Below are positions 1,996-47,735 of a stretch of DNA of 64,000 bases, piece after piece. A model generated the notes under the pieces. That model was not told the origin of the DNA. It saw nothing but the letters and a program-made list of their open reading frames with translations, and searched no databases. Origin of the DNA: an uncultured Sporolactobacillaceae bacterium (GTDB taxonomy: Bacteria; Bacillota; Bacilli; Bacillales; Sporolactobacillaceae); NCBI GenBank assembly GCA_963829575.1, contig CAWHJF010000021.1, positions 160,767 through 224,766 of the forward strand. Direction: 5' to 3'. Made by a program: the position numbers and the translations under genes. Numbering within the stretch: position 1 is the stretch's first letter; the number at the start of each line of letters is the position of its first letter.

Positions 1996-3393
1996 ATGGC
2001 AAACGCTCTTAGCCAGAATTCTTTTAATCAAAAATTAATCGCCCCGATGATTTTAGGATCCATTCTGAATCCAATTAACTCGTCAATTATCTCCGTTGCT
2101 TTAATTCCTATTGGGCAAGTCTTTGGTGCGCCCCCCTCGCAAACGGCCTGGTTGATCTCAGCCCTTTATCTTGCAACAGCCATTGGCCAGCCGGTCGTTG
2201 GAAAATTAATCGACGTTTTCGGACCGCGGCGTTTGTTTCTAATGGCAACTACACTCGTTGGTCTCTCTAGTCTGATCGCGATCTTTGCGCCCAACTTATG
2301 GTGGCTCGTAATAGCAAGGGTCCTTCTGGGCTTTGGAACCTGTGCCGGTTATCCGTCATCGATGTATCTCATTCGAAGTGAAGCAGAACGAACCGGCGTG
2401 GAGAGTCCGACGAGTATTCTGACCACGCTCGCGATCTCCAACCAAACCATTGCTGTCATTGGGCCTACATTGGGAGGCTTACTGATTGAATTTGGCGGTT
2501 GGCAAAGCACCTTTGTTGTGAATCTCCCTTTATCTATTGCTTGTTTTGCACTGGGTTTTGTTCGCTTTCCAAAGCCCAAGCCCAATTCTTCGGATGACAA
2601 AAGAACCCTCGCCTCCATTGATTGGTTTGGGATCTTATTTTTTGCAGTGGCGCTGATCTCCGGCCTTCTTTTCTTAATGAATCCGAGTCTGACGCACCTT
2701 TACTTACTCTTTATTGGAATACTTATGGGAGTGGCTTTTACCGTTTTCGAGTTGAAGGTACAGGATCCTTTTATCGATGTTCGAGTGCTAGGCGGTAATG
2801 CCCCTTTGTTAATGACTTACGCGCGCAGTGTGATTACCGCAACGATTTCTTATAGCATGCTTTACGGCTATTCGCAGTGGTTAGAAAAAGGCCGGGGCTT
2901 ATCCCCGTCCCACGCAGGTTTGCTCCTTTTACCTATGTTTCTCACGGCGATTGTCGTCTCTCGTTCCACAGGAAAAAGTCCGGCAATCTGGCTTAAGTTG
3001 ATGGTCGGCAGTTTATTTCAATGTGTTGCTCTTATACTCTTGCTTTTTACAACTCAAACGAGTCCGCTCGTTTTTCTCATTGGAATAGTCTTATTGCTTG
3101 GCGTTCCTCAAGGTTTACTCAATTTAGCCAATCAAAACGCCGTGTATTATCAGGCGGTTCCCGATCAAATCGGAGCTTCTGCAGGCTTATTACGCACCTT
3201 CATGTACTTGGGCGCCTTGATCTCTTCCTCAGCTAATGGCCTCTTGTTAAAAACAAATGCCATGACCGTTGGGATGCATCAAATTGCGATTTTCACGATT
3301 AGCATCAGCATGCTTTTGATCCTCCTGACAGTGTTTGACCGATCATTAAAGCGGGTTGGAGAAAACGCTCAAGCCAAAATCCTTCAACGATAA
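1996..3393 (+). CDS. MFS transporter (14-TM drug:H+ antiporter-like, DHA2/EmrB type)
   Basis: 465-aa, highly hydrophobic ORF with the MFS motif GKLIDVFGPRR after TM2. It is co-oriented with the hydrolase gene under the TetR-controlled region. Confidence 0.85.
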   Translation: MANALSQNSFNQKLIAPMILGSILNPINSSIISVALIPIGQVFGAPPSQTAWLISALYLATAIGQPVVGKLIDVFGPRRLFLMATTLVGLSSLIAIFAPNLWWLVIARVLLGFGTCAGYPSSMYLIRSEAERTGVESPTSILTTLAISNQTIAVIGPTLGGLLIEFGGWQSTFVVNLPLSIACFALGFVRFPKPKPNSSDDKRTLASIDWFGILFFAVALISGLLFLMNPSLTHLYLLFIGILMGVAFTVFELKVQDPFIDVRVLGGNAPLLMTYARSVITATISYSMLYGYSQWLEKGRGLSPSHAGLLLLPMFLTAIVVSRSTGKSPAIWLKLMVGSLFQCVALILLLFTTQTSPLVFLIGIVLLLGVPQGLLNLANQNAVYYQAVPDQIGASAGLLRTFMYLGALISSSANGLLLKTNAMTVGMHQIAIFTISISMLLILLTVFDRSLKRVGENAQAKILQR

Positions 3394-3404
3394 AATTGGG
3401 AAAA

Positions 3405-3442
3405 GTTCAAGAATCGCGATTTGTGGTTCTTGGGCTTTTTTT
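3405..3442 (+). terminator. Intrinsic terminator of the MFS gene
   Basis: The hairpin GTTCAAGAA..TTCTTGGGC is followed by TTTTTTT. Confidence 0.6.
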
Positions 3443-3510
3443 GTCGGTGCAGATGGGTGAGTGGGTGTTATGACAAGTCAAAAGACACAGAAGGATGAGG
3501 AAGAACAACT

Positions 3511-4972
3511 CTTCGTCTCCCTTTTATAACAATAACGGAACCTCGTGTCCCTTTTTTGAATTTGTGTACTCGACGTTCCGCTAACAGCTCGTTGGGTACG
3601 CTCACGGCGAGGTTACGTCCACCACGATTCGTTATTTCTTCAATTGGATCCAATATTCATAGATAAGTTGGCAAATTGAGGATCGGCGTGTCCCTTTTTT
3701 TCTGAAAACGCCCCTATTTATAACAATAACGGAACCTCGTCTCCCTTTTATGAATTTGTGTACTCGACATTCCGCTAATAGCTCGGTGTGTACGCTCACG
3801 GCGAGATTACGTCCACCACGATTCGTTATTTCTTCAAATGGATGCAATATTTATAGATAAGTTGGCAAATTGAGGATCGGCGTGTCCCTTTTTTTCTGAA
3901 AACGCTCCTATTTATAACAATAACGGAACCTCGTGTCCCTTTTATGAATTTGTGTACACGACGTTCCGCTAATAGCTCGTTGTGTACGCTCAGGGCGAGA
4001 TTACGTCCACCACGATTCGTTATTTCTTCAAATGGATGCAATATTTATAGATAAGTTGGCAAATTGAGGATCGGCGTGTTCCTTTTTTTCTGAAAACGCC
4101 CATATTTATAACAATAACGGAACCTCGTGTCCCTTTTATGAACTTGTGTACTCGACATTCCGCTACCAGCTCGTTGGGTACGCTCAGGGCGAGATTACGT
4201 CTACCACGATTCGTTATTTCTTCAAATGGATGCAATATTTATAGATAAGTTGGCAAATTGAGGATCGGCGTGTTCCTTTTTTTCTGAAAACGCCCATATT
4301 TATAACAATAACGGAACCTCGTGTCCCTTTTATGAACTTGTGTACTCGACATTCCGCTAACAGCTCGTTGGGTACGCTCACGGCGAGATTACGTCCACCA
4401 CGATTCGTTATTTCTTCAAATGGATGCAATATTTATAGATAAGTTGGCAAATTGAGGATCGGCGTGTTCCTTTTTTTCTGAAAACGCCCATATTTATAAC
4501 AATAACGGAACCTCGTGTCCCTTTTATGAACTTGTGTACTCGACATTCCGCTACCAGCTCGTTGGGTACGCTCAGGGCGAGATTACGTCTACCACGATTC
4601 GTTATTTCTTCAAATGGATGCAATATTTATAGATAAGTTGGCAAATTGAGGATCGGCGTGTCCCTTTTTTTCTGAAAACGCCCCTATTTATAACAATAAC
4701 GGAACCTCGTGTCCCTTTTATGAACTTGTGTACTCGACATTCCGCTACCAGCTCGTTGTGTACGCTCAGGGCGAGATTACGTCCACCACGATTCGTTATT
4801 TCTTCAAATGGATGCAATATTCATAGATAAGTTGGCAAATTGAGGATCGGCGTGTCCCTTTTTTCTAAAAACGCCCCTATTTATAACAATAACGGAACCT
4901 CGTGTCCCTTTTATGAACTTGTGTACTCGACATTCCGCTACCAGCTCGTAAGGCGCTCACTCGGGCGTTACA
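3511..4972. repeat. Tandem array A1: about 7.5 head-to-tail units of exactly 194 bp, non-coding
   Basis: The ORF-track starts 3653, 3847, 4041, 4235, 4429, 4623 and 4817 are spaced by exactly 194. Unit 4021-4214 is identical to unit 4409-4602. Units differ only by scattered substitutions, with no indels. The last unit decays at 4950-4972. Confidence 0.95.
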
Positions 4973-5403
4973 ACGCCATCTTTAAACCGAAAAAAAACCC
5001 TTCTAAATTCAAAGGGCGGTTGTTTCTTACGCCTCAATACGATCTGTAATATCCCGACCACCCCCAATTTGTTGAAGGAGAGTGTTCCTGCTTCATCACG
5101 AATCATTTCAACCGTCGTTTCATACCAGCGAAATAATCCGTTTTTATGTCGAACACGTCCAATGAATCTCACTGTAGCTTGATCGATGAATACCGCATTC
5201 CGTGTTTCTAATAATCTTATATTATCATCTGGATGATTTAAGGAGACGGACGGTTTTCCAATGACTTCTTCAGGCGTGTAGCCAAGTAGGGTTTCTACTG
5301 ATGGCGAAACATATGCGAAGACCCCATCTGGTGAAACCGAGAGATGGTTATCAAAGAAATACTGGAATACACCAGGATGTTCAAGAAATTTCTTTTGCAG
5401 CAT
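4957..5403 (-). CDS. Stand-alone PAS-domain protein; the 3' end is probably frameshifted
   Basis: The 148-aa ORF has a PAS fold signature (SPSVETLLGYTPEEVIGKP...HPDD...RHKNGLFRWYE). After the C5 run at 5061-5065, an alternative frame reads GGRDITDRIEA-stop (stop at 5027-5029), which is the usual PAS C-terminal boundary. The annotated tail instead runs into the repeat array. Confidence 0.65.
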   Translation of the reverse strand: MLQKKFLEHPGVFQYFFDNHLSVSPDGVFAYVSPSVETLLGYTPEEVIGKPSVSLNHPDDNIRLLETRNAVFIDQATVRFIGRVRHKNGLFRWYETTVEMIRDEAGTLSFNKLGVVGILQIVLRRKKQPPFEFRRVFFRFKDGVVTPE

Positions 5404-6294: not shown

Positions 6295-8145
6295 CTACTT
6301 AATATTTAACATTTGACCAATATGGATTACGTTCGATCGTAATCCATTCTCTTTTTTAATGGTCGAAACGGACGTATGAAATCTTTTGGCAACTCTTGAC
6401 AAACAATCTCCACGGACTACTTTGTAATGAACGCTTTTTGCAGAACGATTTGCTGTAGATTGCGACGCTGTCTTAATCGTTATTGGTGTTGGAGTGTCTA
6501 TTCTTATTTTTAACGTCTGCCCGATTCGAATGAGACTCGAATGCAGGTGATTCTCTCTTTGAAGTTGAGAAACTGAAATGTGGTGCGATTTTGCAATTTT
6601 CGACAAACAATCCCCGCGTTTCACTTTGTATCCTAAATCGTTCACTGTCGTCTTAGGTGTCACATTGATGGATGAAGAGACTTTGATTGGGGACAGCGTG
6701 GATTTCGCTTGTGACGGGTGTGACACGGTCACCGTTTGTGTTTTCAAGGTCTTAATTTTTAAGACTTGGCCAATCCGAATCAAACTGGAATGTAACGCAT
6801 TTTCTTTTTTGATTTGAATCGTCGAGGTGTGATAGGTCTTTGCAAGTTTTGATAGACAATCCCCGCGCTTTACCTTATAAGAAATAGTCTTCGTGACTTT
6901 AATCGTCTTCGTGCCCTTCTTTGGTGCTTGAACTGGCTCGGCTTTTACTGGTTGAGTAGGGGTTGGGGTTGATTTTGGTGCAACGGGTGGTGAAACAGAT
7001 TGAGTTGGATTCTGAGTATCACTCGAAACACTCGTAGCCGTTCCATCTAATACCCTTCGGAAATAATTCCAGGTTGAAGGCTCTTCATGATTTAAACTCC
7101 AACTTCCGGTTCCTTTAAGGTTATATTTGTTCACTAACTCAATTTTTTCGCTCATCGTTTTCTGATCATCGTACCACAGTACATAGTTACCTGGCGTGAG
7201 CGTTAGGGCCCCTGCTTGACTCGTTGCATCTGTGGGTTTGATCGTAAACGTCGCTTTTTCAGTGTGTTGGGTTGGATCATAGACAACCGTCCCATTATAC
7301 TGCTTCACATAGTCCTCGACGTTTCGTTGAGAGATCGAGATGCCATAGACATTGGTGCCATTCGAAGTTGGACCATCTGTTTTCCAAAGGCGACCATAGA
7401 ACGGCAATCCAAGTACGAGCTTTTCTGGTGAAACGCCTTGGTTAAGCGCATATTGGATGGATTTCTCTACCCATGGTAAACCTGCTACCGGTCCAGGCGT
7501 TGGATCGCCAATCCAATTCTCATCATAGGCCATAATCATGAGGTAATCGGCATAGTTGGATAGCGCCTTATAGTTATATTCCCCTTGCCAGCCGTTTTTC
7601 CAGTTTCCGGGGTTCGCTGCGACGGCGACGGAAATCTCTTTATCTGGCATTCTACTGCGAAGCTGCTTAATAAAATCCGTAAGATCCGCTTGATTGTTTT
7701 CTGTCAGACCCTCAATATCTACATCGATTCCATCCAAATTCAACGTCTTCACTTGATTGGCAATCTCTTGTGCTAAAGCTTGTCTATTTTTCAAGCCCGC
7801 TTTTCCAATCGTTGGGTCCCAGTTGTTGCTCAAGTATGGCGTGACACTTAAGCCTTCCTTGTGCATCTCATCCACAAAGGCTTTACTGTATTTATCGGTC
7901 ACTTTTAAATGCCCATCATTTCCAACTTCAAAATAATCGGGTGACACAGCATTCAACGACCCTTTAGTGGTTGCGACTTCTGAAGCATAATCACCAAAAA
8001 ATAGATAAGACATATTAAATTTTTTTGTGGGTGCTGTTGGTGTTGCAGCATCTGCAAGATGGGCACCACCAATCAGGGAAGACACCACGATCGAAACTGA
8101 TAAAATGGAACCCGCAAAAAAGTTTAATGGTTTTTGAGTTTTCAT
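6295..8145 (-). CDS. Secreted glycoside hydrolase family 18 (chitinase/peptidoglycan hydrolase-like) with three C-terminal LysM domains
   Basis: 616 aa. It has a signal peptide (..GGAHLADAATP), the GH18 catalytic motif LDGIDVDIEGL, a Pro/Thr linker, and then three copies of YKVKRGDCLSKxAK...IRIGQxLKI (LysM). Confidence 0.9.
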   Translation of the reverse strand: MKTQKPLNFFAGSILSVSIVVSSLIGGAHLADAATPTAPTKKFNMSYLFFGDYASEVATTKGSLNAVSPDYFEVGNDGHLKVTDKYSKAFVDEMHKEGLSVTPYLSNNWDPTIGKAGLKNRQALAQEIANQVKTLNLDGIDVDIEGLTENNQADLTDFIKQLRSRMPDKEISVAVAANPGNWKNGWQGEYNYKALSNYADYLMIMAYDENWIGDPTPGPVAGLPWVEKSIQYALNQGVSPEKLVLGLPFYGRLWKTDGPTSNGTNVYGISISQRNVEDYVKQYNGTVVYDPTQHTEKATFTIKPTDATSQAGALTLTPGNYVLWYDDQKTMSEKIELVNKYNLKGTGSWSLNHEEPSTWNYFRRVLDGTATSVSSDTQNPTQSVSPPVAPKSTPTPTQPVKAEPVQAPKKGTKTIKVTKTISYKVKRGDCLSKLAKTYHTSTIQIKKENALHSSLIRIGQVLKIKTLKTQTVTVSHPSQAKSTLSPIKVSSSINVTPKTTVNDLGYKVKRGDCLSKIAKSHHISVSQLQRENHLHSSLIRIGQTLKIRIDTPTPITIKTASQSTANRSAKSVHYKVVRGDCLSRVAKRFHTSVSTIKKENGLRSNVIHIGQMLNIK

Positions 8146-8596
8146 ATCGCACTTCTTTCTTTGATGTAATAGTTTTGTAACATGATTTAATTATAAAGTT
8201 ACGAAAAATGAATAACTACCTTATAAAAATTGGTAATTTGGCAGAGTACTAGATTGAGCGCTTCTTTTGTAAAGCCATACTTCTTTTTCATGAGCGGTTT
8301 GAGTGCCTTCTTTCAATGCTAAACCATCATTGAGGTGAATACATTGTAAAGATGAGGGTTCGTAATGAATGGTGGATTGACTTGCGTGGATTCTGATATT
8401 TATGGGCGGAGATTCGCGACTTTAATGGTGGGATTCAATTAAAATGCGCGTGGATTCGTTCATTATGAGCGGGAATTCGATTAAATCCACCCTTTATTCG
8501 ATTAGACAACTTCGGTATTCGTTCATAGCACCTACCCATGACTCGGTGTGAAACTCAGGGATACGAACGCCAGTTTATAGCTAGGAGGTTTTATTT

Positions 8597-10015
8597 TTGG
8601 ACATTTATGTGGTTCAATCTGGAGATTCATTGTGGAAAATAGCGAATTCATATGGGATGTCGGTGCAGGAGCTTGTCACGGTCAACGGGGTGTCTGATCC
8701 TAATCAACTTGTTGTGGGGCAGGCGCTTGTAATTCCAAAAGATCGTTTCCTCACCTATACAGTGAAGTCCGGTGATACATTGTGGGGAATTGCGAAGAAG
8801 TTTGGAGTATCCGTTTCAACGATCGTATCGCTTAACCAAATCACAAATTCCAACCAAATTAACGTTGGTCAAGACTTACAGATTCCGACCGATTTCTACA
8901 CGGTTAAAGCAGGCGATTCACTCTACGCAATTTCAAGGAAATTAAGCATTCCAATTAAAGACCTCATTAGCCTGAATCAAATCTCAAATCCGTCGCAAAT
9001 TCATATTGGGCAGCGCCTAATCTTACCTGGTAAGACGAAACCACTCGTCGAAGTCAACGGTTATACGGCGCGGGTAGGCCAATCTGAGATTCAAGAGATT
9101 CAGAGTATTGGTAATTCGTTAACCTACTTGAGCCCTTTCAGCTATCACGTACAAGACGACGGGACATTATTGCCTCTCTCAGACAGCGATTTACTGACAG
9201 TCGCGCGCACCGAGCATGTCGCCCCACTTCTCGTCATCACAAATTTTAAAAACGGCCATTTTGATTCTGATTTAGCGCACACAATTCTGAATGACCAAAC
9301 GTTACAAGAACAACTTCTTAAGTCGGTCAAGCAAACATTACAAGCAAAAAAGCAGTTTGGCCTCAATATTGACTTTGAATACGTCTATCCAGAAGATCGA
9401 GAACCATATAATGCGTTTTTACGAAAAGTCGTTAGTGAACTCCATCCTCTTGGCTATTCCGTTTCAACGGCGATTGCTCCAAAAGCCAAAAAAGATCAAG
9501 TGGGTTTGTTATATGAGGCGCATGATTACGCGGCCCACGGTCAAATTGTCGATTTTGTTGTCATCATGACGTATGAATGGGGATATTCTGGCGGTGCGCC
9601 AATGGCGGTTTCCCCTTTAAAGAACGTCAAACAAGTGATCGACTATGCCCTCACAGAAATTCCTGCCCATAAAATCCTTATGGGCGTTCCATTATACGGG
9701 TACGATTGGAAACTTCCATATATAAAAGGTGGTCAACTCGCACAAACTTTGAGTCCACTACGTGCAGTTGAGCGAGCCGCTCAATACAAAGTCAACATTC
9801 AATACGACGAACCTTCTGAATCGCCTTATTATAACTATACCGATGCAAATGGGACTGAGCATGTCGTTTGGTTTGAAGATGCCCGCAGCGTGAACGCCAA
9901 ATATGATCTAGTCAAACAATATAATCTTAGAGGTGTGAGTTATTGGGTGCTTGGCAATCCATTCCCCCAGAATTGGTATGTCTTGAACGATCACTTTCGA
10001 ATTCAGAAATTCTAA
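8597..10015 (+). CDS. LysM x3 - GH18 protein, similar to SleL/YaaH-type spore cortex N-acetylglucosaminidases
   Basis: 472 aa with a TTG start 8 nt after AGGAGG. It has three N-terminal LysM repeats (VQSGDSLWKIA.., VKSGDTLWGIA.., VKAGDSLYAIS..) and a GH18 domain with GLNIDFEYV. There is no signal peptide, as in spore enzymes made in the mother cell. Confidence 0.8.
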   Translation: MDIYVVQSGDSLWKIANSYGMSVQELVTVNGVSDPNQLVVGQALVIPKDRFLTYTVKSGDTLWGIAKKFGVSVSTIVSLNQITNSNQINVGQDLQIPTDFYTVKAGDSLYAISRKLSIPIKDLISLNQISNPSQIHIGQRLILPGKTKPLVEVNGYTARVGQSEIQEIQSIGNSLTYLSPFSYHVQDDGTLLPLSDSDLLTVARTEHVAPLLVITNFKNGHFDSDLAHTILNDQTLQEQLLKSVKQTLQAKKQFGLNIDFEYVYPEDREPYNAFLRKVVSELHPLGYSVSTAIAPKAKKDQVGLLYEAHDYAAHGQIVDFVVIMTYEWGYSGGAPMAVSPLKNVKQVIDYALTEIPAHKILMGVPLYGYDWKLPYIKGGQLAQTLSPLRAVERAAQYKVNIQYDEPSESPYYNYTDANGTEHVVWFEDARSVNAKYDLVKQYNLRGVSYWVLGNPFPQNWYVLNDHFRIQKF

Positions 10016-10254
10016 TTCTAATAAGTTCACTTCATGCCCACGTGAAAATTTGGGATCGCACCTTACCCGATCTACAGAAAGTTCTAATTGATAAATACGT
10101 TATAAGCTAAGTCAACCTCCTATGACTTGGCTTTTATCTTTTATTAATTCCTTGCTTTATAAAAAATGATGGGGCTCGTCCACGAATTGGAAATCACCCA
10201 CATAGCGTATCTTATAAAATGTAACTGTGCGTCCAAAAGGGAACGCTTTATACG

Positions 10255-11235
10255 ATGCTCCAGGCGATTCCCTTTCTAGTACTAATAAGGACTGGAGGCT
10301 CTCAAACATTGATTTATGAAGTGAAACCTGGAGATGCATTATGGAAAATTGCCCATGAGTATGAGACCACGGTAGAAGATCTAAAATTATACAACGGTTT
10401 ACAATCCGATCTCATCTTAGTTGGTCAAAAATTAAAGGTCCCTTTTAGTTATACTGTTGTAGCTGGTGATAGCTTGTGGAAACTGTCCAATACTTATCAC
10501 ACAACCGTTCAATCCATAAAAGATGCAAATGGTCTCAAGTCCAATGTGCTTTACATTGGGCAAAAACTTAGAATTCCGCCTAAGAAATTAAGCATGCAAG
10601 GTGAATTTGTTCTCATGACGAGAGATGATTTTAAAGAGTGGATATTGAACCACAAATTCATGAGAAATGTGACGTTTTTTCAAGAACATCATACCTATGA
10701 CCCCTCTTACGACAACTTCAATGGGTCTAATTATTTTAGTTTACTAGAGGGTATGAAGCGTTATCATGTCCAGACAATGGGCTGGAACGACATTAGTCAG
10801 AACATTACTACATTCCCAGATGGTATGTTGGCTGTTTGCCGGACTTTTAACAATCCGCCGCAAGGTTCTTTTGGATTATTGAACAAATCGGTCACACCCG
10901 CTATCGAAGCCACGGCGTTAGCCATTGAAAATGTTGGGGATTTTGATTCTGGACATGACCAAATGACAGAAACACAGAAAGATACTATCGTCACCGTTGC
11001 GGCCCTCCTCTGTCTCAAATTTGGTCTTGAACCTTCTGTGAACAGTATTACGTACCATCATTGGTGGGATATCCATACAGGTGAGCTTGTGTTCGATAAT
11101 AGTGAAGGTCATGCGGTGAAAACATGCCCCGGCACCAATTTCTTTGGTGGAAATACCACGACCATTGCTAAGACTCATTTCTATCCACTTGTTAAAAGTA
11201 AAATGCAAGAGATTTCAGCTACCCTCTCATTTTAA
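10255..11235 (+). CDS. LysM x2 - N-acetylmuramoyl-L-alanine amidase (amidase_2/PGRP-type)
   Basis: 326 aa. Two LysM repeats are followed by an amidase_2-like core (FFQEHHTYDPS...ITYHHWWD...CPG). An alternative TTG start at 10309 has a better RBS (GGAGG). Confidence 0.75.
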   Translation: MLQAIPFLVLIRTGGSQTLIYEVKPGDALWKIAHEYETTVEDLKLYNGLQSDLILVGQKLKVPFSYTVVAGDSLWKLSNTYHTTVQSIKDANGLKSNVLYIGQKLRIPPKKLSMQGEFVLMTRDDFKEWILNHKFMRNVTFFQEHHTYDPSYDNFNGSNYFSLLEGMKRYHVQTMGWNDISQNITTFPDGMLAVCRTFNNPPQGSFGLLNKSVTPAIEATALAIENVGDFDSGHDQMTETQKDTIVTVAALLCLKFGLEPSVNSITYHHWWDIHTGELVFDNSEGHAVKTCPGTNFFGGNTTTIAKTHFYPLVKSKMQEISATLSF

Positions 11236-11363
11236 ACCATTCAGGAGCTATGTTTTGCTCCTCATTTTGTCTGAATAGCGAACTCAAGACGGCGTACCCG
11301 TCTTTTTGGTAGACTTACACTATGATCCTTTTTAAGTTTCCAAAAAATGAGGAGGTATTATTA

Positions 11364-11915
11364 ATGAAACACGCTCTTGTTGTGGGCGGTACCGGAATGT
11401 TATCAGATGTTTCACTTTGGTTATCGAACCATGACGTCCATGTTTCGGTCATCGGCAGAGACCCGATCAAAATGAGAACGCTACTTTCAAAGTCAAATCA
11501 CCCTTCGCACATCACGCCGCTTTATGTCGATTATCGAGACACCCAAGCGTTAATTCACAACGTTCAAAATCAAATCAAAATCCACGGACCCGTTGATTTA
11601 TTGGTTACATGGATCCATAAAGATGGGGCTCATACTCTTACCTTGCTTATCCAAGAAATCAACTCAAAAGCACGCGAATGGGATTTTTTCCACGTTTTAG
11701 GTAGCCAAACTAACTTAAGTCAAACAAAGACGGCTCTCAATCTTGGAGAACGCAGTCACTATCATCAGATAAAATTGGGGTTTGTTTTAATTGATAATCA
11801 ACAATCTAGATGGCTAACCCACGAGGAAATCTCTAATGGGGTTATTCATGCGATTAAGAATAAGGTGAAGCGTTTCACTGTGGGTGTCCTTGAACCATGG
11901 GAGTTGCGTCCTTGA
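11364..11915 (+). CDS. Short-chain dehydrogenase-like protein (Rossmann VVGGTGMLS motif)
   Basis: ATG 11364 is preceded by GAGGAGG. A glycine-rich N-terminal nucleotide-binding motif is present. No closer family could be recognised. Confidence 0.55.
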   Translation: MKHALVVGGTGMLSDVSLWLSNHDVHVSVIGRDPIKMRTLLSKSNHPSHITPLYVDYRDTQALIHNVQNQIKIHGPVDLLVTWIHKDGAHTLTLLIQEINSKAREWDFFHVLGSQTNLSQTKTALNLGERSHYHQIKLGFVLIDNQQSRWLTHEEISNGVIHAIKNKVKRFTVGVLEPWELRP

Positions 11916-12021
11916 TTTAAGGGTCATCTGAAGAATATTCAATCGACTGCAATTCACAATGCTAAATAACGGGAGCAGAGAATATACTGTATTAGAACAC
12001 ATCGCAAAGGAAGGTGTTGGG

Positions 12022-13030
12022 ATGGGAACACACATTGTGCAGCCAGGTGAAAGCTTAGGGACAATTGCCCAAACCTATAATACGACCGTACAGACTTTAG
12101 TTCACACCAATCATATCCGCCCCTCTAATTCCCTCTTACCGGGGACACTTCTGACGATTCCGGAGCAGTTCCTCAACGTACATAATGAAGACCTTCCATT
12201 AAATCTCTCAAGACCACGAACGGATCCCATTACACATGTCATGATTCATTTTAATTCGAATGCCGCTCACAACCCTCGTGATCCCTACCATCTACAGGAC
12301 ATTCAAAACCGCTCGATCACTAATGGAGTCTCTACCCATTACAGGATTGGACGAAATGGTGACGTCTTTCAATTAGTTGATGAAACGCGCGTGGCCAATC
12401 AAACAAGTAAAGGCTCCCTGCCTGGTTTCCCTGAGTACACGAACCGAATAAACGACGTTTCAATCGGGATCGAGTTAATGGCGATTGGAACTCGTGATGA
12501 AATGCTCAAGTTTATGTCTGGGCAAACCTATGATGCCATTCCCCCTGACAAGGTCGGTTACACAAATGCTCAATACCGGTCTTTAAACCAACTATTGAAT
12601 ACCCTCTTTCAACGACATCCAACGATTGTAAGGGATCGGCGTCATGTTGTCGGATACGATGGAATATGCCCCAACCAGAAGAACGGATCCGGGTAAGCTC
12701 TTTGATTGGTCTCAATTGAAAGCCATCGGTCAATCGGTCCATACCGTTCAAAATGGAGAGACGCTATGGGAGATTGCCCAAAAGTACGGTACGACCATGG
12801 ATGAGTTAGCCAATTGGAACCAACTCAATTCAAACAGTTATCTATATATTGGGCAAAGACTCTTAATTCCAATAGTTCATACTAAAGGCACGCTCTATGT
12901 TGTGCAAGCAGGAGATTCCCTGTGGGGCATTGCCCATACCTTTGATGTCAGTGTCGAAGCCTTAGCCGAAGCGAACCATCTAAGCCCTGGTGCCCTTTTG
13001 CAAATTGGGCATAAATTGATTATCCCTTGA
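12022..13030 (+). pseudogene. LysM - amidase_2 - LysM x2 cell-wall amidase, split by a +1 frameshift near 12662
   Basis: ORF 11959..12696 ends ..RRHVVGYDGICPNQKNGSG*. ORF 12644..13030 in the next frame continues EYAPTRRTDPGKLFDW, which is the conserved amidase_2 motif. One extra G in the GG at 12662-12663 explains the break. Confidence 0.8.
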
Positions 13031-15008: not shown

Positions 15009-15420
15009 ACAAAATTCTCCTCTTCATAAAACGATTTGCTTTAACAGTTGTCAACGTTTGATCCAACTTCATATATGTAAATAAGATCGATTCAAAGCAG
15101 TCCCTTAGTATTATAGACATGCAAGCTGTGAAAAATAAAGAGAAACACAAAATATATGTCACGTCGCAAAAAATAGGGTCACAGTGGTGCGTTATTTGCT
15201 TCTGTAAGGTGGTGCCACAAACTTTATGGCCACGACGATACGCTAACCCCATGATTCCACCTTAGAACGGGTAGGTTGAGGCGCAATAGCGGATCCTCAT
15301 GAACACAAACTTGGTCCGATCGGTGTTTTTGCCCTTTTAACGAATCTTCGAGGACACGTTTTAAAATTAGGTACACTGTGATGCGTTATGGCCTATGGTC
15401 CGCCCATCCTACCCCGTCTC

Positions 15421-15481: not shown

Positions 15482-15884
15482 GTGTTATTTGTGTTCTGTA
15501 AGCCATGTTCTGTACCTAGTACTGCAAACGGGCTGCCCCTCGTACGTTGGTGGCGATCATCTATCTACAGACACATCTGTCTCCCCTTCGTTGAATTCCC
15601 TCCAGGAAGTTCCTCTACCAAATTTGAGTTTCTCGCTCGTGGGGTTTACCTCGTTCCACTTCTCCTGTTTCCAGAAGAACTCCGTCACTGTGGCACTTTC
15701 AAGGGTATTAGACCATATCCCATAAGGACTTAGGTGATTCCCCTGCCGTTACCTGAATCGTCAGGCTACCCTAGCTTATTTTTTCGCTAGGCACGAACAC
15801 TACGATCATCTCAGATCGTGCGAGCATGGACTTTCCTCTATGCCTTCAAAGAGACACAGCGATCACCCAAACACAAATAACACG
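15482..15884 (-). ncRNA. rnpB: RNase P RNA, bacterial type B
   Basis: The reverse complement reads GTGTTATTTGTG...GAGGAAAGTCCATGCTCGCAC...GTGCCTAGCGAA...GAAAGTGCCACAGTGACG...GTAAACCCC...GGCTTACAGAACACAAATAACAC. This contains the universally conserved RNase P blocks and a P1 stem formed by the two ends. It lies between ypsC and gpsB as in B. subtilis. Confidence 0.93.
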
Positions 15885-23793: not shown

Positions 23794-24123
23794 TTAGTTT
23801 AAGATATCAATTTCAATGCTTCTGAATCTTATATTGTCTTTTTTCTCCAACTCAATTAAATATTTCCCAAATTCAATTATAGTTGGATTTGAAATGTCAT
23901 CTAAATTTATAACTCTGTCTACATGAATCCATATTGACCTTGAATCCTCGAGAATAATTATTCCATTATACTCTGATTCAATTGATATTGATGCTATTAC
24001 AATTATTCCATCATAAGTTAAGAGAACATTATTATCATCTATTCTATAACCTGTATTTTTGGAAATATAATTCCCACCAGCCATTTCATCATATAAAATA
24101 AACGTCAAATCAACTTTTTCCAT
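23794..24123 (-). CDS. Hypothetical protein (109 aa from ATG 24123), AT-rich cassette gene
   Basis: The ORF has GGGGG 4 nt upstream of ATG 24123. No recognisable motif. It is divergent from the Abi gene. Confidence 0.5.
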   Translation of the reverse strand: MEKVDLTFILYDEMAGGNYISKNTGYRIDDNNVLLTYDGIIVIASISIESEYNGIIILEDSRSIWIHVDRVINLDDISNPTIIEFGKYLIELEKKDNIRFRSIEIDILN

Positions 24124-24352
24124 AGAACCCCCACGAATTAAATTAATTACCATACGTCTATATATTTTCTTAGAAGAATTAAAATAAAAGTGGAAATCTT
24201 ACCCAACGAACAAATTCATTTTTGGCTTTCTGGTCTCGTCTCTGTTTGAACGGCAAATTTGTTAAATAGGAGACGGAATGTAAAAACCTACTATTGATCT
24301 CGTATAGACAAACATCGTGGACGATTGCCACCATACTTCCTTTCGATTATAC

Positions 24353-24440
24353 TTGACTGATTATTAATACACCTTTAAAATATAGCTAACAGAACCCACC
24401 ACGCCTCTTTACAATGCGGACCACGGTGGGTCATTTTTTT
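24353..24440 (+). promoter_or_regulatory. Element E1: sigma-A-like promoter plus a short hairpin/T-run leader upstream of abi
   Basis: TTGACT (24353-24358), 17 nt, TAAAAT (24376-24381). Then ACCCACC...GGTGGGT followed by CATTTTTTT (24394-24440). A homologous copy lies at 26340-26424. Confidence 0.55.
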
Positions 24441-24460
24441 ATTTAAGGGGTTTATTTCTA

Positions 24461-25398
24461 ATGGACATTAGTAAAAATTTTAAAGAAATAAAAAATCCCA
24501 CTACCTTTAGTGAACAAATTGAACTGAACTCTATAAAAGCCGAAATTTAAAAATTGATGATATAGACTTTGCAGAAAACACCTTGAAGAGAATTAATTAT
24601 TATCGATTGCGAGGTTACACTTTAACTCTGATGGATCCTCAGAATAATGAGATCTTTGTAGACGGTAGCACATTTAATCAATTAATTTCGTTATATGAAT
24701 TTGATCGAAGACTTAGACAGTTATTTATGGCGTTCTTGGAAAGGATAGAAATTGCATTCCGTACACATATTACATACCATCTATCTCACTCATATGGTTC
24801 TTTGGGGTATACAAATAAAGAGGTCTTTATTAATGAAGATTTACACGAGGGCTTTCTCCTTGAGCTAGAAAAAGCCTTATTAAAAGGGAAAAATAGTGAA
24901 TCATTTGTAAAGCACTACTATGAGAATTATAACGGGGAATTTCCAATTTGGGTTGCTATTGAGGTTGCTTCATTTGGTACCATATCTAAATTATATAAAA
25001 ACCTAATACCTGAAATTAAGCAGGTCATCGGAAAAAACTATTATAATATCCCCTACTCTTATATTGAGAGTTGGTTGCAAACTCTATCAAACGTAAGAAA
25101 TGTTTGTGCTCATTATGGTAGATTATATAATAAAAATTTAACTTTTAAACCTCGTCTATTTAAAGAAGAAAGAAAAAACATAAATAATAATAAATTGTTT
25201 GCCGCAATCTATATTGCAATAAGACTGTTGACTAAGGTTGAAGGTAATAGATTTATTACTGATTTAGAGGCACTCATTCTCGAATATGAAAACCATGTTG
25301 ATTTTACATATATTGGACTACCCTTTGAATGGAAAGAACTCTTACTAATTATTAATTCTAGGAAACAAAGTAAAAATTCATCTTTTAACCTGAAATGA
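24461..25398 (+). pseudogene. Abi_2 (AbiD/AbiF-like) abortive-infection protein, disrupted by a 5-nt tandem duplication
   Basis: The main ORF has the Abi_2 hallmarks INYYRLRGY, SFGTISKLY and SNVRNVCAHYGRLYN. The N-terminus (MDISKNFKEIKNPTTFSEQIEL) is in another frame. GAACTGAACT at 24521-24530 is a duplicated GAACT, and removing one copy restores EQIELYKSRNLKIDD. Confidence 0.8.
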
Positions 25399-25441
25399 AA
25401 TGACAAACTTTAACTTAAAGATAAGACTACTATTCTACTCT

Positions 25442-25795
25442 ATTACATGACACGAATGACATGTGGACCAATGTCACCTCTAGGAATAGCCGTTGGAAAC
25501 AAACACTGGCTTGCCCTCCCGCTTCGCCTTTTGAAAGGCTTCTGGGCCCCACGCATACCAATCCACTGGGTTATGTGCATGTTGGAGTAAATAAGGTGAC
25601 TTCTATACCTCGGATTCTTTTTGTCTTTAAACATTTTAACACGTCCTTTGTTGGCTTTTTCTTAAGTTTTGATCCCCTTTTTTGGACGGCTCCATCAAGC
25701 CAGTGAAATTTTGGGGAAGCTTTACTTTTTATTTATTATAACAATAAAAACGTGACACTTGTCTTTAACTCGTCGTCACTTCTAATATAACCGTT
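25442..25795. repeat. Direct repeat copy 2 (orphan yyaL 5' fragment plus upstream region)
   Basis: The minus strand reads [60 protein letters not shown], after which homology stops. It has the same 18-nt insert (25465-25482) and lacks about 20 nt of the NRLINEK region. Confidence 0.85.
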
Positions 25796-25867
25796 ATTAT
25801 GTAGTTTGATTTTTCGATTTCTTTGATGATACCCTTCAAAATAATTAGTCATTTCGGCCCTTTCTAA

Positions 25868-26116
25868 TTAATTCATTTTTTCTAAATTATTTTTCATTGT
25901 ATCAAACAAGTCATCTATACTAAGCCCAGTTTTTGTACGAATTTTAAATAGTGTTGGTATAGACGGAAGTTCCAGTCCATTTTCTATCTTGCGTAGTTCT
26001 TCGACATCGATATCTATCAGAGCCGCAAATTCTTCTTCTGTCATGTCAATTTCCCCCCTTCTCTTTTCTCTTAAAACTTCTCCAAGTACAACTCTTATTC
26101 GTTCATCTTCGTTCAA
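25868..26116 (-). CDS. XRE-family helix-turn-helix protein
   Basis: The 82-aa protein has an HTH_XRE-like core (MTEEEFAALIDIDVEELRKIENGLELPSIPTLFKI). Confidence 0.7.
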   Translation of the reverse strand: MNEDERIRVVLGEVLREKRRGEIDMTEEEFAALIDIDVEELRKIENGLELPSIPTLFKIRTKTGLSIDDLFDTMKNNLEKMN

Positions 26117-26339
26117 ATTTATTCCTCCTTCAACATCAGCAATATTTTGTGGTGATTACATTGCGTTCATGAAGACAAAACTAAGGTTAAGGTTATGAAT
26201 ATGTCGATACTAAAGAGCCAATGCTTCAATGGATGTTTGAAAAAGATTGAAAGGCTATAAGTCAATTAGGTTATCTAATAAAGGATGGGACACAAACCAT
26301 TATAAAACTTTGTGTGCAAATAGAATTATTTTAAACTTC

Positions 26340-26424
26340 GTGACTGCTTATTAATATTTCTTTAAAATATATTAAACACCTCCCACGTCACTTCACAATG
26401 TGGACAACTATGGGTCATTTTTTG
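26340..26424 (+). promoter_or_regulatory. Element E2: orphan copy of the E1 promoter/leader with no plus-strand gene downstream
   Basis: GTGACT (26340-26345), 17 nt, TAAAAT (26363-26368). Then ..CCCACG..ACAATGTGGAC..TGGGTCATTTTTT. It is collinear with E1. Confidence 0.5.
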
Positions 26425-26489
26425 TAAATCATATGAGTTTAAATTATAGTTTGAAATGAATTAAGGATAAGGATAAGAATCAGACTCAA

Positions 26490-26880
26490 TTAGCTCTTAC
26501 TGAGGGATAATTCGAGGTTGTTTAAATCCAAAATAAAACCGCTCTTTAAAAGTATGTCTAAACCTAGTAATCCGCTATGTTCATTAGGCAAAATGGATAC
26601 ATCAATCTCAACGTTGCTTATTTTAAAATCCCCAATTTCTATGGAATCCATTTTCTTCGAATAAAAATGGACGTTTCCACCAATCCCATAAGCCTCATAA
26701 ACTGTGTCTCCATTCTCGTAGGAGACACCAATCTCCGACAAAAAATCTGGATTAATCACGGTGTGAGAAGATCCTGTATCAATGACAACGTTATTTGATC
26801 TCCATAGATTTCCCTCGAAAAGTAACATTTAATGTGGTGGTTATAAGTTGTCCATTATATTCAATTTCCGCGAATATACC
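26490..26880 (-). pseudogene. Retropepsin-like (clan AA) aspartic protease, frameshifted
   Basis: ORF 26490..26828 carries the VVIDTGSSHTVI active-site motif and GLLGLDIL. The expected N-terminal strand (AEIEYNGQLITTTLNVTFRGKSMEIK) lies in a different frame at 26810-26880 and is itself out of frame with the upstream ORF. Confidence 0.6.
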
Positions 26881-27115
26881 CCACTCTCATTAAAGGATCT
26901 TTTCTAATGTGGATAATTAATTCTTCATTAATTGTATGATAGATAATTCCATCTGGACCCGATTTAAAAAATTCTTGATTGGCTTCTTCATTCGTCAACG
27001 GCTTATTAATCGCTACATCATCCACAATTTTCAAATCTCCATCTTGATGAAAATCTAGAATGGAAACGAGAACAAATTGATTTGGAAATTTTTCTCTAAC
27101 CTCTTGCCATTTCAT
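26861..27115 (-). CDS. Small protein (84 aa), possibly DUF5678-like; may originally have been fused or coupled to the protease
   Basis: The ORF is MKWQEVREKFPNQFVLVSILD... The family assignment is from memory only. Confidence 0.4.
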   Translation of the reverse strand: MKWQEVREKFPNQFVLVSILDFHQDGDLKIVDDVAINKPLTNEEANQEFFKSGPDGIIYHTINEELIIHIRKDPLMRVGYIRGN

Positions 27116-27392
27116 CTAGATCACCCTTTCTTTCTCAAAATTATAAGATATTTTCGAAAAGGAGTCCATTAATAAAAATCTTAACGTGAGGCGTGTTATT
27201 AAGTTGAATCTATTAAACAAGATCATAATGATCTTCAACCTCTGCAAGCATATAAACCGGTTTTATTTGATCAAGCTCTTCTCGTGCGTCATTTCAAAAG
27301 TCAGTTGACACCCCTTGCGCATGATTGGCTCTATAGCCATCGACAATGCATCAAGCATCTCCACTCTCATATCCTGATTGGCAAAATTTAGC

Positions 27393-28373
27393 TTAGCGAC
27401 ATTCCACCATGTCATCTTCCAACAAAGAAAACAGCCTATCAAACTTTTCGATTTGATAGGCGTTTCTATGCGTTTTTTTATCTTCGCTAAATTCTCGAAA
27501 AAGCTTATTGGTTTTCTCTTGCACATCCTTACCAGTAATTGTTAAGTACGCAACGAAGATAACAATTATGAGTGTTAAAATAACACTTACTTTCTCAGTT
27601 CCATATCCTAATCCGCCAGCACTGCGATCCTTCCCAAACCAATCTGCAAATGATGCTCCTAATGGACGCGTTAAAATATAGGCAATCCAAAATGTTGCAA
27701 TTCCGTTTGCTTTGATTAGCCCAAAGCACAATCCTGGTATCGCAAATAAACAAGTAAACATGATCCCAGAGGCTAAAAATCCCATATGGAAGGTTTCAGC
27801 AGTTAAATCTCCTAATGCTGTTCCCATAGCAAATGTTGCTAGAACGGTTGCCCAATAAAAGAGTTCCCGACGTTTGGTATTGATGCTATGAATAGATAAT
27901 GTTTTCTCGGTTTTATACCACAACCGAAAAATAACAAGTAAAGCGACAAAAAAGGCAGAAGCAGATAACCAATATGGAATAAGAAGCACCACATGGGCGA
28001 CATCCGCAGCCATTGTTCCAAAAATACTGACCATACAAACCATTAACCAATAAACCCAGGGTATATAACGATTTACTTTAAATTGTAGGATTAAAGCAAC
28101 AATAAAACCTAATGTACCTAGTATTACAGCAAGATATTGATTAACATGAAACACGAGATAATCGGATGTCGCTTCCCCCATTGCCGTTGACAAAAGTTTA
28201 ATGATCCAGAAATAAATGGTGATTTCGGGGACTTTTGTAAGTAATTGTTTGGTGTTTTCAACTGAAACGCGATTATTCAAAATGATCTTTTCCTTCCTTA
28301 AAAGGTTATAAATGACCTCTAACAATTCTTTTTCTTTAATTTCCCTGACTGATAAGTAAATGTTCATACGCAA
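27393..28373 (-). CDS. Polytopic membrane protein resembling the COG4705 family (internal duplication)
   Basis: KVPEITIYFWIIKLLSTAMGEATSDYL is repeated as RELFYWATVLATFAMGTALGDLTAETF. An alternative TTG start at 28280 follows AAGGAAGGA. Confidence 0.6.
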   Translation of the reverse strand: MRMNIYLSVREIKEKELLEVIYNLLRKEKIILNNRVSVENTKQLLTKVPEITIYFWIIKLLSTAMGEATSDYLVFHVNQYLAVILGTLGFIVALILQFKVNRYIPWVYWLMVCMVSIFGTMAADVAHVVLLIPYWLSASAFFVALLVIFRLWYKTEKTLSIHSINTKRRELFYWATVLATFAMGTALGDLTAETFHMGFLASGIMFTCLFAIPGLCFGLIKANGIATFWIAYILTRPLGASFADWFGKDRSAGGLGYGTEKVSVILTLIIVIFVAYLTITGKDVQEKTNKLFREFSEDKKTHRNAYQIEKFDRLFSLLEDDMVECR

Positions 28374-28546
28374 TAGTATTAAGTTATCATTATCTAAATA
28401 GACGATGCTAGCCCAAAAAAAGTTTAAAGGAATCTTTTTTTATTTATTAGCAAATCTTTCGGAAGGTTATTGATTCTCTTGAATTTGCTACCCATCAAGA
28501 TAAGTCTAAAGGGTACCTCATTCCTTTTTTTCTTTACTATCCTCAA

Positions 28547-29692
28547 CTAGATCTGATTAATTAATTGATTCCATTCCTTGGAAGACATCATATCTAAATT
28601 CCAGATTCCCACGCCAGCCATGCGATATTTTTCGACTAGATCAAAATAGATTTGGAGAGAACGATCATTTGTCAGCCATACTTTATATCGTTTTCCATTT
28701 TTATTATAAGTTACATCGTAAGTGGCTTGTTTAGGGTCCCATGTTTCAGGACGATTCGTTTGTTTCAATAGCTTGCTCACATATTGATTTGCTAAAGCCA
28801 TGCTCGTAATCGTATTGCCACTTTGATCGACTTCCCAGATTCTTGTATATGAGGGTAATCCAATGATAAGTTTTTGAGGGGAGACACCTGTTTCAATGAG
28901 GTGTTTGACATTTCCCTCTAACCAATTAAGAGAAGTAACAGGCCCGGGTGAAGAGTCAGTGGACCAATGTTGGTCATAGCCCATAAAAACAATGTAGTCG
29001 CTATATTTGCTAAGTTGTCGATTGAAAGGAATAAGTGTTGAAGAACGATCCAGTGGTTCAGGCTGTATATCAATTGATAAAGTGATATGATTTGGAATGA
29101 TTGACTTAGATAGACTCATGACAAATTGACTGAACGCCTTACGATCGTTTAATGGAATTTGTTCTATGTCTAAATTTAATCCGTCTAAATGGTTCTGTTG
29201 AGCCCTAGTTTTAATTTCTCGAATGACTTGTTTCCAAACTTTTGAGTTCTTTAAGAATTGATGAGTTGAAGTATCTGATTGGTTCCCCAACGTAACCCTT
29301 CCCCAAACCTTTTTACCTTCTTTTTGCAGACTTGAAATAAAAGTAGGAGAACAATTAAGATGTAGATTGTAGGAACTGTTTATAGTTGCAAATAAAGGGG
29401 AAACGATTTTAAGCTTATCGTAACTTGCAAGCTGATGGTTGTTTCCGACCATCCATCCTAATGTCACCAGTTTTGAAGGAGCAATTTCTGATGGGTTCTT
29501 AGTCGTAGGTTTAGATCGATTTGCTAAATGAGATGGATCAGCTGTTTTTAAAGCCCAACTCCCATTCATACTATTAGGGTGCTGTATAAAAATAATTAAA
29601 GTTGGAATTCCAATGACCGCTATAGCGATAAGAATGATAAAAATAACCATTCGCCGAAAAAAACGTTGAATATATGATGAAAGATTGTCCAT
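28547..29692 (-). CDS. Membrane-anchored GH18-family glycosyl hydrolase (YdhD/YaaH-like)
   Basis: 381 aa with an N-terminal TM helix and a GH18 motif LDGLNLDIEQI. Confidence 0.8.
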   Translation of the reverse strand: MDNLSSYIQRFFRRMVIFIILIAIAVIGIPTLIIFIQHPNSMNGSWALKTADPSHLANRSKPTTKNPSEIAPSKLVTLGWMVGNNHQLASYDKLKIVSPLFATINSSYNLHLNCSPTFISSLQKEGKKVWGRVTLGNQSDTSTHQFLKNSKVWKQVIREIKTRAQQNHLDGLNLDIEQIPLNDRKAFSQFVMSLSKSIIPNHITLSIDIQPEPLDRSSTLIPFNRQLSKYSDYIVFMGYDQHWSTDSSPGPVTSLNWLEGNVKHLIETGVSPQKLIIGLPSYTRIWEVDQSGNTITSMALANQYVSKLLKQTNRPETWDPKQATYDVTYNKNGKRYKVWLTNDRSLQIYFDLVEKYRMAGVGIWNLDMMSSKEWNQLINQI

Positions 29693-29975
29693 TCCTTCAC
29701 TTCCTGTAGTAATTTATTATTAATTAATATATATGAGAGGAACTACAGAATAGTAGTTAAACTCTATCAAAAAATTTAATCCTTTATAAGTTTAATTCTA
29801 CTTTTAGTCATTACATATTAATTATGCTAATTTGATAGTTTAACAAAAAAAGGGATGCTAATCACTGAACAAAAAGCATACCCAAATTTTATTAATGCCG
29901 CTCATTTAATTATTCTCTTCACAAAATGAAACACTAATTGGTTGTTCAAAGTCTGTTTATGAATTTAATATGTCA

Positions 29976-40897: not shown

Positions 40898-41306
40898 AAG
40901 TTGATCGCCTCTCTTTTTTTGGATCGTTAAGTGTTTAGTATTATATGTGTGCTCTTAGTTTCGTCAAAATAACTTCCCAGTTAAATGAAAAATTTCATGA
41001 CCTCACAGATCTTTAGATATAAATCATAACAAAAAATAATGAATTTGACATGGAAAGAGGGAAACGACATGTATCTATATACAGCTTAGTTAAGTCATAC
41101 TCGTTGAAAATGGTTTCTGCGCATTATAAATTAAATACATTGTAAAATTTACATTAAATAGGAACATTGTTGTTCTTGGTTCCATGCCCTTGATTTTGTT
41201 AGATCGCTCTTTTGATTCTTGTCCTCAGTTACAGCTAATCCTATTAGAAAAAAGTCTACCTTTTCTTATGTTAAGGTGGAGTCCACTCTTATGTAAAAGT
41301 CACCTT

Positions 41307-41864: not shown

Positions 41865-41952
41865 CTCTCATCCATTCCTTATGGTTTTCGTTAGATTTCA
41901 AAAGGATTTGCTCAATCACAGGTTAGATCCACTTCATAAGAATCAATCTCTG

Positions 41953-47714: not shown

Positions 47715-47735
47715 TCAGACTACTATTCCGTCAGT

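Follow-up and report, generated by a model that had tools for sequence, protein, structure and literature searches.

An uncultured Sporolactobacillaceae bacterium carries, between a convergent pair consisting of an MFS transporter gene and a PAS-domain open reading frame (ORF), a tandem array of near-identical 194-bp units, which raises the questions of what kind of element such an array is and how its units come to be so alike. We analyzed this array (A1) within the 64,000 nucleotides of contig CAWHJF010000021.1 that contain it (assembly GCA_963829575.1; we refer to this whole stretch as the window). A1 is one of three loci of a single repeat family in the window, the others being a second array (A2) and a decayed copy, and the 194-bp unit is non-coding. 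The explanation that we favor, and to which we give an even chance of being right, is that A1 is a locus of a lineage-restricted family of structured, non-coding intergenic repeats of the BOX/REP kind (BOX, REP/BIME and the Neisseria intergenic mosaic elements [NIME]), passively transcribed from the minus strand. As judged from its sequence, the repeat family is new but falls within a known kind of element, and such function as it may have is a prediction.

The 194-bp repeat family and the homogenization of array A1

Tandem Repeats Finder places A1 at 3519-4949, with a period of 194 bp, 7.4 copies, 96% matches and 0% indels (score 2596; copy numbers are given as assembled, and the survey covers 64 kb of one genome). 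The full units begin at 3519, 3713, 3907, 4101, 4295, 4489 and 4683, followed by a partial unit from 4876, and a profile search (nhmmer) recovers the units at E values of 1e-62 to 1e-65. An earlier interpretation made from the letters alone (the sequence-only reading) had described 7.5 copies without indels; the array stands as described, with the count lowered to 7.4, and the absence of indels agrees with the program except in unit 7, which is one T short near 4858 (a run of seven Ts reduced to six, either by a genuine loss of 1 bp or through a sequencing error in the homopolymer). Variation across the A1 units is confined to 22 of the 194 columns, among which are all of the variable positions that had been listed in the sequence-only reading, and at least six distinct unit variants are present within the array.

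The second array, A2 (58380-59033; delimited by Tandem Repeats Finder and alignments), has the same orientation as A1, with a 194-bp unit present 3.2 times. The consensus sequences of the two arrays share about 65% identity (67 differences), and the units of the two arrays are related by two compensating 1-nt indels that leave them equal in length. The third locus is a decayed copy of about 1.3 units (15150-15400, minus strand, opposite to A1 and A2; nhmmer E 7e-5), lying in the gap that separates the terminator of rnpB (the RNase P RNA gene; 15494-15874, minus strand) from the next gene. All three loci occupy intergenic DNA downstream of genes, and a structure-aware model of the hairpin H1 (described below) found no further copies within the window. 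Both arrays begin just before the segment that bears H1 and run to just past one additional copy of that segment, a shared phase that gives the layout H1-[rest-H1]n; the array edges are nonetheless fuzzy. GATC sites number five per unit in A2 and one per unit in A1.

Homogenization within A1 is graded from center to edge. Central units (u4 to u6) differ from one another at 1-4 positions and the edge units u1 and u7 at 11-18, and the longest exact repeat at an offset of 388 (two units) spans 280 bp from 3994; the segments 4021-4214 and 4409-4602, which had been reported as identical and indicative of recent amplification or homogenization, are indeed identical and fall within this repeat. The final partial unit follows the internal units through column 74 and then turns into the A2-like CGCTCACTCGGGCGTTAC, at a place where all internal units carry CGCTCACGGCGAGATTAC. 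The degenerate right edge of the array (4950-4970, ending in ...GTTAC) has the form of an older, A2-like version of unit columns 75-97: at 4952-4970 (GCGCTCACTCGGGCGTTAC) it is closer to the A2 version than to the A1 version (local score of 28, compared with a maximum of 24 in 200 shuffles), which bears out the suggestion that the last unit degenerates toward A2. We read the terminal partial unit as an older copy that escaped homogenization, so that a change arising after the split of A1 and A2 has spread through the interior of A1 and not to its edge. With its homogenized center and A2-like edge copy, the array bears the classical signature of concerted evolution, whether by unequal crossing-over or by gene conversion, in support of the homogenization that the sequence-only reading had proposed.

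A hairpin in a non-coding unit

The non-coding status of the unit can be stated plainly. Seven minus-strand ORFs do start exactly 194 nt apart, as the sequence-only reading had noted (3653, 3847 and so on to 4817; one of 61 amino acids at the left edge and then six of 71), and the minus-strand ORFs of A2 (69 amino acids) are open in the same frame. The ORFs of 71 (216 nt) and 69 amino acids, however, start with TTG and have no ribosome-binding site by reading. The related claim that no protein can span units is correct in that no frame remains open over several of them, but not in its strict form, because the 216-nt ORFs cross unit borders. Differences between A1 and A2 are distributed 26/22/19 by column modulo 3 (no codon periodicity), no frame of either array has a Pfam match, a search with the concatenated six-frame translation of both arrays against 5.8 billion proteins returned nothing, even at E values up to 10, and a profile of the ORFs returned nothing from 1.84 billion representative proteins. 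With no Pfam match, no 3-periodicity and no homologues, we rejected a small protein as the product of the unit. A decayed LysM-repeat coding region, an idea prompted by the likeness of AAAAGGGACAC to the codons for KKGDT, by the periods of 68-77 amino acids in neighboring LysM genes and by the 71-amino-acid ORF, was rejected as well: X-masked three-frame translations have no Pfam LysM match, and a custom hidden Markov model (HMM) of the window's 12 LysM domains, run with filters off, found nothing (best E 0.37). Known RNA families (including ribozymes, tRNA-like elements and tmRNA) were likewise rejected on searches with Rfam and ARAGORN; in Rfam there was no match at the gathering score, and at E values up to 10 one chance-level match in A1 (Ref55, E 6.5) and none in A2.

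What the unit does contain is a conserved hairpin. RNAalifold predicts, on both strands, the same imperfect, AT-rich hairpin of about 50 nt at unit columns 15-65, which we call H1. An example in its stable sense is found on the minus strand at 4304-4374, where the arms read UAGCGGAAU-G-UCG...CGA-G-GUUCCGUUA; the other copies in A1 lie at 3528-3598, 3722-3792, 3916-3986, 4110-4180, 4498-4568, 4692-4762 and 4885-4955, and those in A2 (located with cmsearch) at 58384-58454, 58578-58648, 58772-58842 and 58966-59036. The decayed copy retains an H1 at 15325-15393, whose stable sense is that of the window's plus strand. Pairing is kept in 92-94% of the cells, compared with 30-53% when the partners are slid by 1-3 columns; for A1, A2 and the decayed copy taken together the figures are 92% and 37-53%. 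Across the loci there are compensatory changes of both kinds, double (CG to AU and AU to UA) and single-sided (GU/AU, UG/CG and UA/UG), and the decayed copy preserves eight of nine outer-stem pairs, with GU-to-AU and UG-to-CG switches. Variation inside A1 is less informative: the expectation that the variable positions would fall in loops or form compensatory pairs receives a weak answer, with 2 of the 22 variable columns lying within the 30 paired columns of H1, one of them a UG/CG switch (wobble to Watson-Crick) and the other breaking a pair.

The two strands are not equivalent with respect to H1. As minus-strand RNA the hairpin folds at -15.5 kcal/mol in A1 (z -3.9) and -19.1 kcal/mol in A2 (z -4.6), compared with -8.6 (z -1.2) and -9.8 kcal/mol (z -0.6) for plus-strand RNA; modeled as single-stranded DNA, the hairpin attains no better than -5 to -7 kcal/mol (z -1.3 to -2.5). 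Scores from cmsearch follow the same division (81-95 bits for minus-strand copies, with those of A1 at 88-95, and 12-23 bits for their plus-strand mirror images). Because the asymmetry stems from G-U pairs, it argues for a constraint at the level of minus-strand RNA (or, less well, of single-stranded DNA) over one imposed by a protein-binding site in duplex DNA.

Outside H1, an invariant 16-nt block, TTACGTCCACCACGAT (for example, at 4389-4404), occurs once per unit in both arrays and comprises the loop CACCAC and the top of a second hairpin, H2. The stem of H2 has two compensatory pairs and is thermodynamically weak on both strands; long-range pairings on the plus strand also show some compensatory changes, and they are weak or mutually exclusive with others. 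We do not rely on H2 or on the long-range pairings for these reasons.

Transcription context and rival explanations

Neither array appears to have a promoter of its own. In the A1 region (3300-5200, both strands) there were no sigma-70-type promoters against 3.9 expected, and in the A2 region (58100-59300) the only promoter-like match lies outside the array (59185-59156, minus strand); motifs for SigA, W, H, E, G, K and L, sought by consensus scan and by eye (alternative sigma factors by eye only), gave nothing convincing or conserved between A1 and A2. GC skew shows the minus strand to be the leading strand and the one rich in genes.

On that strand, A2 lies between the stop codon (59172) of an NlpC/P60 gene with four LysM domains (59172-60557, minus strand), upstream, and a strong terminator-like hairpin of 11 pairs (58331-58306, minus strand) just downstream, and a terminator scan reported no terminator-like site on the minus strand between 59172 and A2. 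Because of this placement between a stop codon and a strong terminator, A2 is probably part of the NlpC/P60-LysM gene's 3' untranslated region (UTR). The hairpin is itself just 48 nt upstream of the start codon of the next gene, which encodes a FUSC-family membrane protein (56297-58258, minus strand).

The surroundings of A1 are of another kind. Its convergent neighbors, correctly recognized in the sequence-only reading, are the MFS transporter gene on the left (1996-3393, plus strand; Pfam MFS_1, E 5e-41) and the PAS-domain ORF on the right (4957-5403, minus strand; Pfam PAS_3, E 2e-14), whose stop codon falls within the degenerate edge of the array. The array is positioned between two terminators: upstream of A1, a probable terminator of the MFS gene at 3408-3445 on the plus strand (CAAGAATC...GGTTCTTG and then a T run), read from the sequence and missed by the consensus terminator scan because its loop exceeds 8 nt; and, just upstream of A1 on the minus strand, a terminator-like hairpin with T8 that belongs to the PAS gene (5017-4997). 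The PAS-only ORF (148 amino acids) has a frame that reads through its own terminator hairpin and stops in the A1 edge, with a gene-free gap of about 470 bp upstream of it, and it may be the remnant of a larger sensor gene.

Under the explanation that we favor, a founding copy of the form H1-rest-H1 would have been amplified by unequal homologous recombination, gene conversion or replication slippage, and the same processes acting between units would keep them uniform. The arrays, having no promoters of their own, would be transcribed passively from the minus strand, A2 as part of the NlpC/P60-LysM 3' UTR and A1 when transcription of the PAS gene reads through. In REP elements, RNA hairpins shield the mRNA upstream of them from 3' exonucleases. 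By analogy with such a role, demonstrated for REP and suggested for BOX, stacked H1 hairpins might act as barriers to these enzymes or as aids to pausing or termination; alternatively, they might have no host function.

The closest precedent is the BOX element of Streptococcus pneumoniae, which has tandem boxB modules, is predicted to fold into hairpins once transcribed, changes in length by slippage or unequal crossover and probably acts on co-transcribed genes (PMC3049150). Like A1 and A2, BOX elements (boxA-(boxB)n-boxC) are non-coding and intergenic, occur at several loci, have a tandem internal module with predicted hairpins and carry no gene of their own (PMC3049150). Unlike the arrays, they are built of modules of 45-59 nt, number more than 100 per genome and have distinct end modules, A and C, which pair. 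In the arrays, by contrast, it is the entire 194-bp unit that repeats, with its hairpin inside it; only three loci were seen, no distinct modules of the A or C type were found, and the same H1-bearing segment is present at both ends. A likeness in sequence to BOX is not to be expected. The REP class (listed in PMC3184786), with the REP/BIME elements of enterobacteria and pseudomonads, resembles the arrays in being intergenic, hairpin-forming, clustered and often placed between convergent genes or after stop codons. REP sequences are, however, GC-rich palindromes of 20-40 nt that alternate in orientation, number in the hundreds and have an association with RAYT transposases, whereas the arrays consist of AT-rich, head-to-tail 194-bp units with an imperfect hairpin of about 50 nt, and no RAYT or Y1 transposase was seen in the window. 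Of further systems, NIME (dRS3-RS) share the layout in which a short inverted-repeat element stands at both array ends, but dRS3 is a 20-bp phage integration site and the RS segments differ, whereas the intervening segments here are all the same; and mycobacterial MIRUs are also intergenic tandem repeats at several loci, likely polymorphic in copy number as the arrays would be, but measure 46-101 bp, lie within operons and contain small ORFs coupled to the flanking genes, whereas the unit here is longer and its ORFs lack ribosome-binding sites.

Several points weigh against this explanation. A1 lies beyond both flanking terminators, so that its transcription needs read-through; the decayed copy is opposite in orientation to its neighboring genes; and both the transcription and the RNA role of the arrays are predictions. 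The covariation is drawn from three lineages only, and the whole unit is no more stable than its shuffles on either strand (z -1.3 and +0.9), H1 alone being robust. Family copy number and solo copies were assessed in the 64 kb of this one genome only. Finally, simple neutral amplification leaves unexplained the exact 194-bp period at about 65% identity, the common phase in which both arrays start and end, and the lack of any variation in the 16-nt block. Because plain unequal crossing-over does not explain the exact period, the common end phase and the block, two more novel readings stay alive: (i) that a minus-strand transcript (for A2, the 3' UTR of a cell-wall hydrolase mRNA) is cut at H1 into RNAs of about 194 nt that act via AUCGUGGUGGACGUAA, and (ii) that the arrays are copied by a hairpin-guided single-strand or rolling-circle process. 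Either would account for all three features, and we regard the two together as possible but doubtful.

Stated in full, the first of these is a functional tandem-repeat RNA: the minus strand would yield one long transcript, and its cleavage at or near H1 would release units of about 194 nt, which would constitute a new multi-copy structured non-coding RNA (a regulator, sponge or scaffold), with AUCGUGGUGGACGUAA as its recognition or seed sequence. It would fit the strand specificity of H1 and its conservation with compensatory changes, the invariance of the 16-nt block between arrays otherwise about 65% identical, the exactly conserved unit length and the placement of A2 within a probable transcription unit. 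Set against these are the lack of a promoter in or before the arrays, of any Rfam family even at E values up to 10, of a partner gene common to the loci, of significant structure in the whole unit when compared with shuffles, and of any homologue found in other organisms, and therefore of any sign of long-term selection. Tandem small RNA arrays (NsiR1 of Anabaena and LhrC1-5 of Listeria) are similar to A1 in consisting of near-identical, non-coding, head-to-tail intergenic units, but each of their units has a promoter and a terminator, and none was found in the units of A1 or A2. Type III antitoxin repeats (ToxI and AntiQ) and CRISPR arrays are tandem repeats in which one precursor is cut into units; their repeats are 21-48 nt long and are linked to a toxin or cas gene, and CRISPR has unique spacers, whereas the unit here is 194 nt and has none of these. 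The array is not a CRISPR, because the whole 194-bp unit repeats at 96% with no unique segments between, and no Cas family occurs among 54 ORFs of the window compared with Pfam, a scan that left aside three plausible ORFs of at least 100 amino acids (54557-55159, 55311-55817 and 55849-56151). Nor is it ToxIN-like, given the unit of 194 nt against about 34-45 nt and neighbors (MFS, PAS, NlpC/P60 and FUSC) that are not of that system, the window's Abi_2 gene being 19 kb from A1. On balance we consider a functional tandem-repeat RNA unlikely.

A mobile or recombinogenic DNA element seems to us somewhat more unlikely still. H1 would here be recognized in single-stranded DNA, as in IS200/IS605-derived elements, REP/RAYT or integron attC sites, and arrays of the form H1-[rest-H1]n would grow by repeated insertion beside an existing copy or by rolling-circle copying. 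Such an element would make sense of two arrays that start and end with H1 in the same phase, of three dispersed loci in 64 kb and of the solo H1-like remnant that the closest relative (L005, described below) has at this locus; the H1-stable strand of both arrays is, in addition, the G-rich strand, which has the sequence of the lagging-strand template, and A1 ends right after TTAC. This last feature would suit an IS200/IS605-derived (PATE) element, but A2 does not end after TTAC, and the hairpin is weak as single-stranded DNA (energies given above). No transposase (including HUH enzymes), recombinase or reverse transcriptase was found among the 54 ORFs scanned, to which the three ORFs at 54557-56151 do not belong; no terminal inverted repeats or target duplications were recognized; the array edges are fuzzy and degenerate and not sharp; and the decayed copy is oppositely oriented. 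The arrays do not have the form of a MITE (a miniature transposable element with inverted repeats), because the inverted repeat H1 is internal and not terminal and the degenerate edges show no recognizable duplication. They are not attC sites either: GTTGGGT is limited to some of the A1 units (units 2, 3 and 7 have lost it, as has A2), no inverse core or conserved attC-type pair of R'' (RYYYAAC) and R' (GTTRRRY) cores was found by reading, and the window contains no integrase. Matches to attC cores, the SpoIIIE/FtsK recognition motif, dif, parS and Chi (AGCGG) were isolated and short and were not conserved across units or arrays, and these candidates were rejected.

It is very improbable, in our view, that the array is a double-stranded set of protein-binding sites for chromosome organization or regulation. 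A motif of about 20 bp, AATARCGRATC..GTG, can be read three times per unit (two direct copies and one inverted) in both A1 and A2, and the period is conserved, as such an array would lead one to expect. An asymmetry of H1 that arises from G-U pairs, and GU/AU switches, are unexpected for a duplex site, however; the motif is not the same in A1 as in A2, whereas a single genome would provide a single protein; and no candidate binding protein is linked to the loci.

An assembly artefact, by repeat expansion or mis-joining, is hardly credible. Arrays of 194-bp units are hard for short-read assembly, and the 1-bp difference in a T run, together with two split genes elsewhere in the window, hints at sequence errors; but the at least six unit variants, which are ordered in a gradient from center to edge, cannot have come from one unit by simple collapse or expansion in assembly, the family is also represented by a second, diverged array and by a decayed copy, and the flanks are unique and biologically sensible. 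That A1 encodes 71-amino-acid proteins or is a decayed LysM coding region is effectively refuted by the TTG starts without ribosome-binding sites and by the periodicity, Pfam, HMM and homology results given above, despite frames that are open alike in A1 and A2, the similar size of the neighboring LysM periods and the resemblance of AAAAGGGACAC to KKGDT codons.

Distribution of the family and other observations

The source organism is an isolated member of the Bacillales. Its MFS protein is at most 84% identical to any other (71-73% to those of named Bacillus, Heyndrickxia and Pullulanibacillus species), and its FUSC protein at most 53%. The sequence-only reading had proposed that the intergenic region be compared in sister strains. 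Two genomic sequences with an orthologous MFS gene (L027 and L028; 77-78% identity) have a hairpin homologous to the MFS terminator 3' of that gene, and in them the repeat is absent. In the closest relative (L005, Logan SRR30639616; MFS 84%), one weak match to the H1 region occurs in the same place (1575-1645; nhmmer E 1e-4 in a small database). The match is weak and unpaired with the H1 model, the hairpin is not kept and the contig ends 60 bp past it; it could represent a solo copy in decay or a point where the assembly broke on a repeat.

Searches elsewhere used motifs built from the blocks conserved between A1 and A2, patterns that recover both arrays in the window. A two-block scan gave no matches in IMG/VR and four single chance matches, in unrelated phyla, among 185,579 GTDB species representatives; a three-block scan of JGI metagenomes gave 21 single matches, none of them unit-like by blastn or nhmmer. 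Because these scans require exact matches to the conserved blocks, diverged relatives could escape them. A search in the distant mode of blastn through 72,556 plasmids and 50,697 phage records found no match to the unit, and on this ground we rejected a plasmid or phage origin (single-strand origin or iterons). The absence of the repeat at the orthologous locus and the null scans elsewhere indicate that the family is young or restricted to this lineage.

If the ordinary explanation holds, A1 would be a clean case of concerted evolution in a bacterial 'minisatellite' made of a structured intergenic repeat, in a lineage of the Bacillales that has been poorly sampled. Copy number is likely to be variable in an array of this type, which can also interrupt assemblies built from short reads and may affect how stable neighboring mRNAs are or how they terminate. 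If unit-length RNAs exist, the family would instead be a candidate for a new class of tandem-repeat non-coding RNA. The features that merit attention are the compensatory changes between paralogous arrays, the strand-specific hairpin and the conservation of unit length and the 16-nt block at about 65% identity.

The window contains several other features that we record here. LysM cell-wall hydrolase genes are unusually dense, at 6295-13030 and again at 59172-60557 (two GH18-LysM genes, a LysM-only gene, an amidase-LysM gene and the NlpC/P60-LysM gene). The amidase_2-LysM gene (11959-13030, plus strand) is split into two overlapping ORFs, and a zinc-dependent alcohol dehydrogenase gene (42890-43833, minus strand) is split into two ORFs (ADH_N and ADH_zinc_N); both are frameshifts, and represent either pseudogenes or sequencing errors. 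GC content is lower at 24001-32000 and 40001-48000 (0.34-0.37, compared with 0.40-0.44 elsewhere), and these stretches may be acquired islands. At 24395-25398, in a low-GC stretch, the Abi_2 (AbiF/AbiD-like) gene has directly upstream of it an abiF RNA motif (Rfam RF03085, 38.3 bits), and abiF RNA with Abi_2 is a known abortive-infection pairing. Outside the window, an unrelated intergenic tandem array occurs in Pullulanibacillus sp. KACC 23026 (L032, CP119107.1; 14580-15486), between genes for a histidine kinase and an ECF sigma factor: it consists of 17.5 copies of a 52-bp unit (about 38 nt conserved and about 14 nt more variable), with a higher-order period of 208 bp.

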